Shown: positions 28,418 to 34,590 of the stretch, piece after piece
Layout of the letters: every line of letters starts with the position of its first letter
How positions within the stretch are numbered: position 1 is the first letter of the stretch
NCBI GenBank assembly: GCA_038065315.1
Contig: JBBTRF010000001.1
Coordinates: 33,642-97,641, forward strand
Source of the DNA: Patescibacteria group bacterium
Lineage (GTDB): Bacteria > Patescibacteriota > Minisyncoccia > Phycocordibacterales > JBBTRF01
Direction of reading: 5' to 3'
DNA length: 64,000 nt
The notes under the pieces: generated by a model
What the model was told of the DNA's origin: nothing
Database searches by the model: none
Seen by the model: the letters and a program-made list of their open reading frames with translations, nothing else
Made by a program: the position numbers and the translations under genes

Positions 28418-28564
28418 GAGGGTAATTCTAACAGGGGAGTGAGGCGAGCGATAGAATTGACATAAGGCATCATATCGTGATATGATACTTTTTGATGAAA
28501 TCGTTCTTTGACGATTGTCCTTGCTGCATTCGGTGGTTCAACAATTTCAAGCGGAAAATTCATT

Positions 28565-29179
28565 ATGACGACTGAGTTCACGACGGAGGTAATGACCCCT
28601 GATCAAGAGAAGCTACTGGTCGATGTTTTGTTGGGCATCCACGGTGGCCGCGAATTGGAAACTTTCTTTTTTGGAGATGCCGCAAAGGTGGGCAGTAGTG
28701 AACCAAAAAAACTTCCACTGCTAGAGGCCTTCTTTGAAATGTTACAGGCGCAAGAAACCAGATTTGGTTGGAATGCGTCATCGCCTGTGCCTCTTGCGAG
28801 TCGTATCCTGTTCCATTCTGTCGCCAAACACTTTGACCGCATGCGGGATAAGAAGCGGTTGAGACTCTACGTTGCTACGGGCATTAGTCTCGATTGGCAT
28901 CATCACATGGACGCAGTGTTTGCTTGCGGGCGTCGTTTCGTGGGGTTAGACATCACCACTGAGTGGCGAGTAGACAAGCTCGATCTGAAGGATGCAATAA
29001 TCGCTCGGTGCCAATTGCCGATCGTATTGATCCCGAGAAATGAGATTGCCGTTGTCGGAGGCTTCAACGCATTTAGCGAAAGGATCGCTGAAAGGATGAA
29101 GCACGAACTCTCGTTGTCGCCACCATCACCGCCCCAGAAGTGCTGGTATACGGCAAGAAGCTTGGCTGGGGCTTCCTAG
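28565..29179 (+). CDS. Hypothetical protein, paralog 1 of a tandem pair (unknown family)
   Basis: Shares ordered motifs with the downstream paralog: FFGD, RFGW/RFDW, LYVA.G...D..HH.D.AF, VG.DLT. Confidence 0.55.
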   Translation: MTTEFTTEVMTPDQEKLLVDVLLGIHGGRELETFFFGDAAKVGSSEPKKLPLLEAFFEMLQAQETRFGWNASSPVPLASRILFHSVAKHFDRMRDKKRLRLYVATGISLDWHHHMDAVFACGRRFVGLDITTEWRVDKLDLKDAIIARCQLPIVLIPRNEIAVVGGFNAFSERIAERMKHELSLSPPSPPQKCWYTARSLAGAS

Positions 29180-31868: not shown

Positions 31869-32696
31869 GTGAAAGGTACACCCTTGTCGGATGCAAATGA
31901 TGTCGCGCTCACAGTGCGCGCCATCGCTCTCGGTATGAAATTGGCACTCAATCTGCCGAAAGTGTTCACGCTCAGAGAGCTTGAGCATTACGAAGCCAAT
32001 CTTGATGAGCTTCCCGGGATTCTCCGGAACGGCTCTCGCTTTACCGCGACAGCCACCCAAGAAGGTGCGACTCAGACAGAACCTCCCCCGCGTCCCTCCT
32101 TCGCCTTTGCTGACACGAACGCCCTCAAGGCGATCGAGGAAGCCGAGGACTTTGCCGAGAAACACTTCGGCCATCGCCCCGACTTGCGCAAGCAGTTCAC
32201 GATGCCGAAGGTTTTGCCCTGGAAAATTGTGATCGCGGTCTATGATCCCGGCACTTTGACCCATCGCCAAGCAGTGGAGCAGGCCCTCAAGGCCCAGCCC
32301 AAGCTTAAGAGTGTGTATGAGGAGCGGGACCTGATGGACTACAAGGACGCGAAAGCTTCCGGCAAGCCCACTCTTCGCTTCGTTGAACGCTCGACGCAGC
32401 CGACACCGGACACGATGAATCTCACCGCAGACGAGATGGTGGCCACAGGGCGCGTCTTCCTCGATCTGCGCGGTTACATCATCGCCTTCGGCATGTATCA
32501 CAAGGTGACCGGCCACTTCCTCGACCCGAAGACGTGGACCCGGTTCCCAACATCGAGGCTCCCCGACGGCGGGGTGGCGAGTGGCTACTGGTTTCCGGGC
32601 TACTCGAAGGTCCGCTTCGACTGGGACTACGCCGGCTATCGCGGCTCCGACATCGGTGGTCGCGAGGCAGTCAATTGTGCCCTTGCAACTCCTTGA
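31869..32696 (+). CDS. DGR target (variable) protein; the C-terminal ~38 aa are encoded by the variable region
   Basis: GTG start with upstream AAAAAGGA; the C-terminal coding 116 nt matches the template repeat downstream except at TR adenines. Confidence 0.8.
   Translation: MKGTPLSDANDVALTVRAIALGMKLALNLPKVFTLRELEHYEANLDELPGILRNGSRFTATATQEGATQTEPPPRPSFAFADTNALKAIEEAEDFAEKHFGHRPDLRKQFTMPKVLPWKIVIAVYDPGTLTHRQAVEQALKAQPKLKSVYEERDLMDYKDAKASGKPTLRFVERSTQPTPDTMNLTADEMVATGRVFLDLRGYIIAFGMYHKVTGHFLDPKTWTRFPTSRLPDGGVASGYWFPGYSKVRFDWDYAGYRGSDIGGREAVNCALATP
32557..32672 (+). repeat. DGR variable region (VR)
   Basis: 116-nt match to 32982-33097; all 19 mismatches are at positions where the TR has A. Confidence 0.9.
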
Positions 32697-32981
32697 GCCC
32701 CTTGTTTCCTTCGACTTCTCCTCTTCACCCCTCGGCTTGCTATGGCAGGTCGGGGGTTTTTCTATGCGACAATGTGACAAAAGCAGCTCGTTTACGCTAT
32801 ACTTTTTGCAGGCTGTTAAATTGGTCCGATATTTTCAATCTGTGAAAAATGTCTGACAACAATTTGCCTAACAATAGAAACTGCTTGCTCACGTTTATAT
32901 TACGCATGCTCTGCCGCACGCATTCTCAACTCAGGAGTTTTTGCAAAAGGACTCCGGTGATACGGACGAATGTGGGCAATA

Positions 32982-33097
32982 AGGCTCCCCGACGGCAAGG
33001 TGGCGAATGGCAACTGGAATCCGGACAACTCGAAGGTCAACTTCAACTGGAACAACGCCGACAATCGCAACTCCAACATCGGTGGTCGCGAGGAAGT
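32982..33097 (+). repeat. DGR template repeat (TR)
   Basis: AAC-codon-rich (encodes NGNWNPDNSKVNFNWNNADNRNSN); 97/116 identity to VR, differing only at TR adenines. Confidence 0.9.
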
Positions 33098-33100
33098 TTC

Positions 33101-33484
33101 TCACAACAAAGAGCCACTAGGCTCTTTTTGTGTCTGGCTCGGCAGTGCGCCTGTTTGGATCGCATATGTCAGCCAGCCGTTGGTCATTTTCGAAATCTCG
33201 ATGAGTTGCTCGTAGAATCGAAAATACGTTTTCTCGGGGATGATTTGCAGTTCATGTTCAGTTCGGACAAGGTGTTTCAATATCTCGACTTGCAATCGCA
33301 GCTCCTCCAGCGCGCTTTGTTTTTCTTGCCGCGGCCGGAAAGCCGCTTCTACAGCGAGCGCAAGGCAGGCGAGAGACTGCTTTTCTATCTGTGCATGGAT
33401 ACCGAGTTTGTCTCGCTTCGATAATTTTTCTGCGCTACAATACAAGTCCTTATGCAACAGGCGAATAGCACGGATGATGGGCAA
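33101..33484 (-). CDS. avd: Avd-like accessory variability determinant (four-helix-bundle protein), probable TTG start
   Basis: LSKRDKLGIHAQIEKQSLACLALAVEAAFR and EISKMTNGWL align with the TIGR02436/Avd consensus (kyglTsQirRAavSIpsNIAEG ... mLngLi); the ORF-track start 33628 would overlap the RT N-terminus. Confidence 0.55.
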   Translation of the reverse strand: MPIIRAIRLLHKDLYCSAEKLSKRDKLGIHAQIEKQSLACLALAVEAAFRPRQEKQSALEELRLQVEILKHLVRTEHELQIIPEKTYFRFYEQLIEISKMTNGWLTYAIQTGALPSQTQKEPSGSLL

Positions 33485-33552
33485 AGTGGTATCACTGGGA
33501 GCGGTTTTGGTAGTAGCGGGGGGGGGGTATTCATGGTTTTGATTTTCGTGAT

Positions 33553-34590
33553 GTAATATTTGACGACATCGTATCGCTAAGAAGTCTTTTTTCGGCTTGG
33601 CGCCGGTTTTCAAAAGGGAAGCGGTCAAAGAAGGATGTTACCCTATTTGAGCTCCATTTGGAAGACAATCTCTTTTCTCTGCATCGTCGGCTGGTCTCGG
33701 GAGAGTGGCGTCCTGACCCGTATCAGGCTTTTTTGGTGCAGGATCCGAAGCTCCGACGAATCCATAAGGCGAGCGTCGGCGACAGGGTGCTGTATCAAGC
33801 TGTGTATCAGACGCTGTATCCGCTGTTCGACAAGCATTTTATCCATGATTCATACGCCTCTCGCGATCTGAAAGGTACGCATCGGGGTGTCGAGCGGTTT
33901 GGGGTGTTTGCGAAAAAAGTAAGTGCCAATCATTGCCATGCAGCTTTTGTGTTGAAGTGTGACGTGCGGAAATTTTTCGACTCCATTGATCACGACATTT
34001 TGTTGGAACTGCTGGGGCGGAAGCTTGGCGGCCGCGCGTCGGGCACTCCACACCTGCTCAGACTTCTCGAAAAGATCATCCGCTCTTTTGAGGCTTCACC
34101 TGGCAAAGGGCTGCCGCTCGGAAATGTCACGAGCCAGATTTTTGCGAATATCTACCTCAACAAACTCGATCAATTTGTGAAGCATTTCCTGCGCGCGCAA
34201 TACTATATACGATACTGCGACGATTTTGTATTGCTATCGTCGTCGCGCGAGGAGCTCGAGGGTTGGACTCGGGAAATCGGCCAATTTTTGCAGGAGCATC
34301 TGAAACTTTCATTGCATCCGAACAAGGTCACGATACGCAAGCTGCTCCAGGGAACGGATTTTCTCGGGTATGTGAGCTTGCCGCGCTATCGCGTGTTGCG
34401 GACGAAAACCAGAAACAGGATGTTCAAAAAGATCGTTGGACTCGCGGCTGAGGTGAAGAGTGGAAAGATTTCTGAGGATCGTTTTTGCAATTCACTCGCT
34501 TCCTATCTCGGCATGTTGAGACATTGCAAAAGTAAGAAGGTGTTGGCGGAACTCGGCACGCTACTTGGTACCGCTGACCAACCCCGATGA
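33553..34590 (+). CDS. DGR-type reverse transcriptase (probable GTG start upstream of ORF-track start 33658)
   Basis: LPLGNVTSQIFANIYLNKLD (DGR-specific SQ motif), YCDDFVL (YxDD); an upstream in-frame AWRRFSKGKRSKKDV matches the usual DGR RT N-terminus. Confidence 0.85.
   Translation, partial: VIFDDIVSLRSLFSAWRRFSKGKRSKKDVTLFELHLEDNLFSLHRRLVSGEWRPDPYQAFLVQDPKLRRIHKASVGDRVLYQAVYQTLYPLFDKHFIHDSYASRDLKGTHRGVERFGVFAKKVSANHCHAAFVLKCDVRKFFDSIDHDILLELLGRKLGGRASGTPHLLRLLEKIIRSFEASPGKGLPLGNVTSQIFANIYLNKLDQFVKHFLRAQYYIRYCDDFVLLSSSREELEGWTREIGQFLQEHLKLSLHPNKVTIRKLLQGTDFLGYVSLPRYRVLRTKTRNRMFKKIVGLAAEVKSGKISEDRFCNSLASYLGMLRHCKSKKVLAELGTLLGTADQPR

Follow-up and report, generated by a model that had tools for sequence, protein, structure and literature searches.

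A probable Avd gene antisense to TR and RT in a chromosomal DGR of a Patescibacteria group bacterium

The prototype of the Avd proteins is that of the DGR of Bordetella phage BPP-1 (4DWL; RT-Avd-RNA complex 8UB7). Its avd gene lies upstream of TR on the same strand and contributes the 3' end to the DGR RNA; a spacer of 140 nt that separates TR from brt holds the priming site, and a stem-loop follows directly 3' of TR. For the CPR (candidate phyla radiation), Wu et al. 2018 (NAR 46:11, PMC5758913) described an architecture B3 with the order TR-(avd)-RT, in which avd is located on the reverse strand, and reported that this architecture makes up 90% of the CPR DGRs. Handa et al. (bioRxiv 10.1101/2023.10.23.563531) detected a stem-loop just downstream of TR in 207 of 278 Avd-containing DGRs, those of the CPR included, and read it as a putative Avd-binding element. 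The locus of the present study lies in a stretch of 64,000 nucleotides from a Patescibacteria group bacterium (contig JBBTRF010000001.1), which we refer to as the window. It agrees with the CPR-type B3 cassette (PMC5758913) in order, orientation, the presence of a single target gene and a CPR/Patescibacteria host, and no difference in architecture is apparent. With BPP-1 it shares a predicted four-helix bundle of ~110 residues, the gene of which adjoins TR and RT, and a stem-loop directly 3' of TR as for an Avd-binding element. In contrast to BPP-1, a reversed avd stands in the place of the spacer between TR and brt, and a conserved, putatively structured RNA is present 5' of TR instead. The predicted fold is also that of the 23S rRNA intervening-sequence/TIGR02436 proteins (2GSC), to which a weak PF05635 match points as well, but the context in the window is that of a DGR and not of an rRNA intervening sequence.

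The features of the locus are given below by position in the window, together with the strand and the evidence for each of them.

31869 to 32696, plus strand: DGR target gene of 275 aa with VR at the C-terminus (open reading frame; 275 aa in public assemblies, too)
32556 to 32671, plus strand: VR, a 116-nt direct repeat of TR with 84% identity
32729 to 32756, plus strand: terminator-like hairpin 3' of the target gene, 12-bp stem followed by TTTTT (by consensus match)
32774 to 32803, plus strand: promoter-like site GTGACA-18-TATACT ahead of the TR leader (by consensus match, 10 of 12 positions)
32811 to 32979, plus strand: putative structured leader RNA 5' of TR (29-locus alignment, RNAalifold)
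32877 to 32884, plus strand: motif GAAACTGC of the leader, invariant in the alignment and complementary to the 3' edge of TR
32982 to 33097, plus strand: TR (direct repeat), 426 nt downstream of VR
33101 to 33484, minus strand: probable avd, 127 aa from TTG 33484, stop TGA 33103-33101 (profiles, homologues, predicted fold)
33108 to 33132, either strand: hairpin AAAGAGCC-ACTA-GGCTCTTT with T run, after TR (terminator-like call on the plus strand, folding energy)
33474 to 34590, plus strand: DGR RT, 371 aa from ATG 33474 (P0099) given 9 G (RVT_1, E 1.2e-22)
33518 to 33527: G10 homopolymer, read as C10 on the minus strand, where the 5' regions of RT and avd overlap in antisense (sequence)

The cassette around 33101-33484 is a complete DGR in which both the TR/VR adenine pattern and a DGR-type RT are present. 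All 19 mismatches between TR and VR fall on adenines of TR and on the first or second position of a target gene codon, and since these adenines are on the plus strand the template RNA corresponds to the plus strand. Reverse transcriptases of the DGR clade are recognised by an RVT_1 domain in combination with an [I/L]GxxxSQ motif; the RT of the window carries the DGR-type sequence LPLGNVTSQ, which is kept in its relatives, and the nearest of these relatives belong to CPR loci that have A-biased TR/VR pairs of their own. No family in Pfam or NCBIfam was matched by the target gene (31869-32696). The window is the same as a Hainich groundwater contig in ENA except for one base, and VR is the same in the window and in two further assemblies (L001 and L002), that is, in three independent assemblies.

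The open reading frame of interest on the minus strand spans 33628..33101 and has 175 aa from its first start codon. A reading of the sequence alone had assigned it to an Avd/TIGR02436 pattern on the basis of the peptides LSKRDKLGIHAQIEKQSLACLALAVEAAFR and EISKMTNGWL, both of which are indeed found in this frame, and had derived a 127-aa product from an in-frame TTG, which is present at 33484-33482. The Avd part of the assignment is supported. The NCBIfam model NF033474 (DivGenRetAVD) matches the frame with E 3e-13 and significantly over its full length, albeit below the curated cut-off (50 bits versus 80), and aligns ORF residues 49-153 to profile positions 1-103 of 104. Residue 49 aligns to position 1 of the profile, and the Avd domain therefore starts exactly at TTG 33484. 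Pfam family PF22296 (bAvd) is matched with E 3.2e-8 and 34.5 bits, likewise under its gathering score of 40. The TIGR02436 part of the assignment did not hold, as an NCBIfam search gave no match of the frame to this model at E <= 1; the match to PF05635 (23S_rRNA_IVP; E 0.011) reached 16.4 bits and stayed under the gathering score of 33.8. A database search yielded 98 homologues at E <= 1e-3 (best E 3.5e-53, best identity 77%), nearly all of which were already annotated as PF22296, carry the name 'four helix bundle protein' and originate from Taylorbacteria/Paceibacterota/Patescibacteria MAGs. The NF033474 E-value over the whole profile and the 98 homologues together place the Avd match far beyond chance. 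The exact Avd sequence of the window is absent from a collection of 5.8 billion proteins, where the nearest match is 77% identical.

An AF2 model built from 95 sequences (pLDDT 92.1, pTM 0.81) predicts four helices at residues 2-20, 23-49, 52-78 and 84-112. In a Foldseek comparison with the PDB this model superposes on Bordetella Avd (4DWL; TMq 0.74-0.77, TMt 0.84-0.88, rmsd 1.8-2.1 A, E ~2e-3, 14-16% identity), and the Avd chains of the DGR RNP 8UB7 are among the top matches; the best match is 2GSC (Xcc0516, an uncharacterised Xanthomonas protein) with TM 0.79-0.89. PDB sequence searches with either the single protein or the 95-sequence profile recovered no Avd, and the link of the frame to bAvd rests on the predicted structure. 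The predicted pI of 8.9 is mildly basic and, along with the neighbouring stem-loop, is consistent with an Avd that would assemble into a pentameric barrel, bind RT and the DGR RNA and be needed for cDNA synthesis. In the window avd lacks an in-frame ATG, and TTG 33484 is not preceded by an obvious Shine-Dalgarno sequence.

Several details of the sequence-only reading had to be adjusted. That avd runs antisense to TR and RT and abuts TR is borne out by the coordinates, but the stop codon is 3 nt and not 4 nt from the end of TR, the last VR-aligned base of which is 33097. The frame is open up to position 33628 and, as had been claimed, overlaps there with the N-terminal coding region of RT; the codon at this position, taken for a Met, is TTG. 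Neither is the minus frame the only one between TR and RT: a plus-strand ORF of 191 aa (32849-33424) spans TR and the antisense of avd. This ORF is without family support, and in the public ENA assembly of the contig it is a spurious call made in place of avd. Taken together, we regard it as very probable that the product of the minus-strand frame 33101-33484 is Avd, and that this four-helix-bundle accessory protein belongs to a chromosomal CPR DGR of architecture B3.

The cassette was compared with related ones in 87 loci, comprising 80 GTDB species loci obtained with an RT profile, six found by exact protein and the window itself. All relatives of the window locus belong to CPR/Patescibacteria. 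An avd was detected in 80 of the 87 loci, and in each of these 80 it is located directly upstream of RT on the opposite strand; among the seven loci without a detected avd, RT lies at a contig end in four. The gene callers, too, put avd opposite to RT in L003-L006 and in L087-L100, and the gene calls of L003-L006 show the same order and synteny as the window. L004 has HisRS, target gene, avd, RT, TruB, RRM, DoxX and BipA in common with the window, a flanking synteny from which we conclude that the cassette is chromosomal and inherited. TR/VR pairs were detected in 66 loci. The adenine-bearing strand was the RT strand in every one of them, and the end of TR precedes the stop codon of avd by -25 to +104 nt. 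The antisense avd had been considered an unusual cassette arrangement. This applies in comparison with the Bordetella prototype, but the reversed avd is ordinary for a CPR host, and the claim finds no support because TR-(avd)-RT is the described CPR standard (B3), in line with the 80/80 loci above. An avd homologue that has no RT next to it was observed in L101-L103.

The arrangement had also been taken to imply convergent transcription across TR. This does not follow and is unlikely; a hairpin with a T run lies between TR and the body of avd, abuts TR and probably stops transcription there. The hairpin at +11..+30 after TR (33108-33127) falls within the last 10 codons of avd and has folding energies of -16.1 kcal/mol on the plus and -17.1 kcal/mol on the minus strand (z -3.8 and -4.7). 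An equivalent hairpin was found after TR in 60 of 64 non-redundant related loci, with a median of -16 kcal/mol versus -8 kcal/mol in control segments, and in the relatives A and T runs often border it. A hairpin at +39..+77 after TR, which had been picked automatically, was rejected as the conserved element; the homologous one is that formed by AAAGAGCC and GGCTCTTT at +11..+30, as in L004. We consider it more likely that TR RNA and avd mRNA converge on the hairpin than that they read through each other, because a stable hairpin with a T run separates TR from the avd body and is kept in 60/64 loci.

The 5' ends of avd and RT have a property that is less ordinary. In intact relatives RT starts with M-x(8-14)-GGG and Avd with M-x-PPP, both ORFs overlap in antisense by 36-66 nt, and a G/C homopolymer is located inside the overlap. 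Of 76 non-redundant loci, 65 carried a run of 7-13 nt here, and runs of at least 8 occurred 61 times at the junction versus twice elsewhere in 547 kb. As the tract sits between each ATG and the domain encoded downstream of it, a single indel changes the frame of both genes. The frame states of the 65 loci with a tract are as follows.

Both ATGs in frame: 19 of 65 loci
Both ATGs out of frame, with an equal offset: 25 of 65 loci
RT in frame, avd out of frame: 8 of 65 loci
Other frame combinations: 13 of 65 loci

Loci without the homopolymer have intact starts. In the window the tract consists of 10 G. L001 and L002, two independent assemblies of the same population, have 9 G and show no difference from the window besides the tract over 9117 and 2832 nt, respectively. 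The 9-G allele encodes an RT of 371 aa from ATG 33474. With the 10 G of the window, two TAG stops (33511-33516) interrupt the RT frame, which does not open until 33517; no ATG, GTG or TTG occurs before 33658, where TTG is the first canonical start, and the minus-strand ATG 33534 does not share the avd frame and leads into an ORF of 49 aa. The 10-G copy may thus not express either protein normally, given the lack of a canonical RT start upstream of 33658 and of an in-frame ATG for avd. Tract length was constant in the independent assemblies of three other populations (8/8, 5/5 and 3/3), in each of which at least one of RT and avd has its ATG out of frame. Random assembly noise was ruled out on these grounds as the cause of the frame disruptions, and the constancy identifies the out-of-frame states as genotypes. 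Dual coding of Gly and Pro was likewise rejected as a full account of the homopolymer, since the codon registers differ between loci and the runs reach 13 nt.

Poly-G tracts are known from the phase-variable contingency loci of Neisseria and Campylobacter, and slippery CCC-C proline codons from recoding sites. The CPR DGR tract resembles both in being a G/C run of 7-13 nt within coding sequence, the length of which sets the frame and differs between assemblies (9 versus 10). It differs from them in that a single tract is part of two oppositely oriented genes, and in its invariant length in three populations with 3-8 assemblies each. The tract states may reflect slow phase variation, slippage dependence or silent cassettes. 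In the limited literature collection searched, no paper tying DGRs to homopolymers, phase variation or frameshifts was found.

The state of the tract bears on how the presence of avd is to be read. The gene may be real while the cassette in this copy is off or decaying: 10 G leaves both RT ATG 33474 and avd ATG 33534 out of frame, and little or no RT-Avd complex would be formed. The two TAG stops, the lack of an RT start before 33658 and the 49-aa out-of-frame ORF behind ATG 33534 are what would be expected of such a copy, as are the 25/65 tract-bearing species loci with both ATGs out by the same offset, the recurrence of out-of-frame states in independent assemblies (8/8, 5/5, 3/3) and the identity of VR between the assemblies compared. 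Against this, the two ORFs show no other damage and are conserved, the 9 G of sister assemblies from this population restore the 371-aa RT, TTG 33484 is the first residue of the Avd domain and independent of the tract, and the 19 A-to-N differences show past activity. The intact starts of loci without the homopolymer also speak against decay and point to a tract-specific, possibly reversible or recoded state. We hold an off or decaying cassette to be rather unlikely.

Two further explanations concern the identity of the frame itself. The minus frame could be a generic four-helix bundle of the TIGR02436/23S rRNA intervening-sequence kind that happens to neighbour a DGR without taking part in it. 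Its 23S_rRNA_IVP match (E 0.011), the best Foldseek match 2GSC, which is of that fold, the public naming of its homologues as 'four helix bundle protein' and the orphan homologue in L101-L103 would fit, but the best profile is the DGR-specific Avd model and TIGR02436 is not matched at E <= 1. In addition, the gene lies between TR and RT in all 80 loci where it is detectable, its 5' end overlaps that of RT, and the stem-loop at its 3' end corresponds to the Avd-binding element of Handa et al.; a bundle unrelated to the DGR is very improbable in view of this. Even less credit can be given to the possibility that the minus ORF is a non-coding shadow and the 191-aa plus-strand ORF 32849-33424 the real gene. 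The gene caller did pick the plus-strand ORF in the ENA contig, and the window Avd is missing from the 5.8-billion-protein collection (best match 77%). That ORF crosses the non-coding TR and has no family match, though, whereas the minus frame is matched by a profile significantly and over its full length, has 98 homologues and is assigned a fold with confidence, and L003-L006 and L087-L100 annotate avd opposite to RT.

Upstream of TR, the alignment of 29 loci suggests a structured leader RNA that consists of a P1 hairpin (32811-32868), a long-range helix P2 (32885-32896 with 32968-32979), the 3' strand of which abuts TR, and a P3 hairpin (32934-32955), with a conserved motif GGTGATACGGAC at 32956-32967. 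According to RNAalifold, 32 of 38 pairs show compensatory changes across the 29 loci; 93% of the cells are paired compared with 72% in shuffles, none of 500 shuffles reached the observed value, and 33-50% are paired in a control with slid partners. An Rfam scan of 32650-33650 at E <= 1 yielded no family. A TATAAT-like -10 box is kept at one position ahead of the leader in the same 29-locus alignment, and the GTGACA-18-TATACT site of the window may act as a promoter.

The AGTTTC motif at 33095-33100 straddles the 3' edge of TR, and in 24/29 loci this edge holds an exact 6-mer complement of the leader motif. Leader and TR edge pair with each other in the MFE fold of 32808-33135 and likewise in its centroid fold, and covariation (GAAATT with AATTTC) was found in L019 and L061, two loci that are perhaps related. 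The motif also belongs to the TR/VR homology. As a hypothesis drawn from the template:primer duplex of the Bordetella RNA, CPR elements could carry the priming and positioning RNA upstream of TR, which would fit an avd on the downstream side.

Judged from sequence features, the locus would be organised in three transcription units, namely the target gene with a terminator of its own, a free-standing TR RNA made up of the -10 box, a structured leader of ~170 nt, TR and a terminal hairpin common to the avd 3' end, and the divergent avd/RT pair, whose 5' coding ends would overlap in antisense across the G/C homopolymer. If Avd acts like its homologue of the Bordetella phage, it should bind both RT and the RNA that contains TR. 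The RT-Avd-RNA complex would then copy TR RNA into cDNA with misincorporation opposite adenines, and the mutated cDNA would replace VR of the gene at 31869-32696.

As a joint reading we tentatively propose, and consider possible though still doubtful, that the reversed avd is part of a distinctive control and RNA design of the CPR. The G/C tract (7-13 nt) would frame RT and avd together, so that the RT-Avd complex would depend on tract length, as in phase variation, or on transcriptional or ribosomal slippage. The free-standing TR RNA, with its conserved structured leader 5' of TR and leader sequence GAAACUGC pairing to AGUUUC, could take over the priming and positioning roles of the Bordetella spacer. 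A term search of Wu et al. 2018 (PMC5758913) gave no hit for the antisense overlap with a G/C homopolymer, the TR leader or the hairpin shared by TR and avd.

The avd finding in itself adds one more case of the standard CPR DGR cassette, and its practical value is an annotation correction. The G/C tract, the structured leader and the complementarity of leader and TR are less ordinary side observations, which we offer as leads and not as conclusions. The conserved tract common to the start regions of RT and avd provides a testable hypothesis on the regulation of DGR activity, and the covarying leader with its complementarity to the TR 3' edge one on cDNA priming outside the Bordetella element; both concern the largest and least studied DGR clade. 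In a second subfamily of CPR DGRs, a conserved CTCTCTTCATTTCTC was observed after TR.

The template repeat (TR) of the DGR cassette is flanked on its 5' side by a conserved structured RNA leader, which is preceded by a conserved -10 box and consists of two hairpins and a long-range helix adjoining the TR. The following elements surround the TR:

32811-32979, plus strand: conserved structured RNA leader directly 5' of the TR, with covariation in 29 loci
32877-32884: invariant leader motif GAAACTGC; the 3' edge of the TR bears AGTTTC (33095-33100), to which the motif is complementary
33108-33132: strong hairpin with a T run directly 3' of the TR, overlapping the 3' end of avd

Covariation within the leader is strong: 32 of 38 pairs are compensatory across the 29 loci, a value that was reached by none of 500 shuffles. 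No matching Rfam family was found for the leader. An exact complement of the motif GAAACTGC is present at the TR 3' edge in 24 of the 29 loci, and in L019 and L061, two of the related loci used for comparison, motif and edge covary. The pairing also appears in both the MFE and the centroid fold of the predicted 328-nt TR RNA. It is possible that this pairing represents a counterpart, positioned upstream of the TR, of the template:primer duplex of the Bordetella phage BPP-1 DGR. A second subfamily of CPR DGRs (L041, L042, L051, L052, L063, L067 and L083) is without the GAAACTGC leader motif; in these loci, the 3' end of the TR is followed instead by a conserved segment, CTCTCTTCATTTCTC, and then by a CTCTCC...GGGAGAG hairpin.

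On the 3' side, 60 of 64 related loci have a strong hairpin within the TR-proximal 50 nt; it carries a T run and, in many cases, an A run as well. This hairpin resembles a terminator for both directions, and it is the equivalent of the stem-loop that Handa et al. (bioRxiv 10.1101/2023.10.23.563531) regard as the putative Avd-binding element.

The 5' coding ends of RT and avd overlap in antisense, and this overlap contains a further conserved element:

33518-33527: G/C homopolymer, 10 G in the window

Across the avd/RT junctions of the window and of L003-L086, such a homopolymer of 7-13 nt lies within the RT/avd antisense overlap in 65 of 76 CPR loci, and a single tract simultaneously fixes the frame of both genes. 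The ATG codons of RT and avd are in frame together in 19 loci; in another 25, the two are out of frame with an identical offset. The tract comprises 10 G in the window versus 9 G in two sister assemblies, the rest of the compared sequence being identical; in three other populations, an out-of-frame tract length is constant over 3-8 assemblies. A single MAG of Candidatus Taylorbacteria (GCA_016188455.1) harbours three separate DGR loci of the B3 type, i.e. TR-(avd)-RT with avd reversed (L043, L088 and L095), with junction tracts of 11, 10 and 6 nt and differing frame states. The short metagenome contigs L104-L107, L092, L094, L117 and L118 terminate upstream of the avd start, at a distance of no more than about 100 nt; the contig ends upstream of avd in L117 and L118 are without a G/C tract.

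The avd gene is unannotated in the public ENA assembly because another frame was called there:

32849-33424, plus strand: 191-aa ORF that runs across the TR and antisense to avd

The window's Avd sequence was not found in a collection of 5.8 billion proteins. In Hainich H52 groundwater, an Avd homologue with 49% identity is encoded at positions 1501-1827 of L101, and also in L102 and L103; its gene follows an S1-domain gene in the same orientation. Within the 3.3 kb examined, no RT was detected near this homologue, which is possibly an orphan avd or a remnant cassette.

Two adjacent ORFs lie further upstream in the window:

28508-29179, plus strand: ORF of 223 aa
29252-29932, plus strand: ORF of 226 aa

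Compared by eye, they look like paralogues of one another, with common motifs that include RF(G/D)W and LYVA.G...HH.
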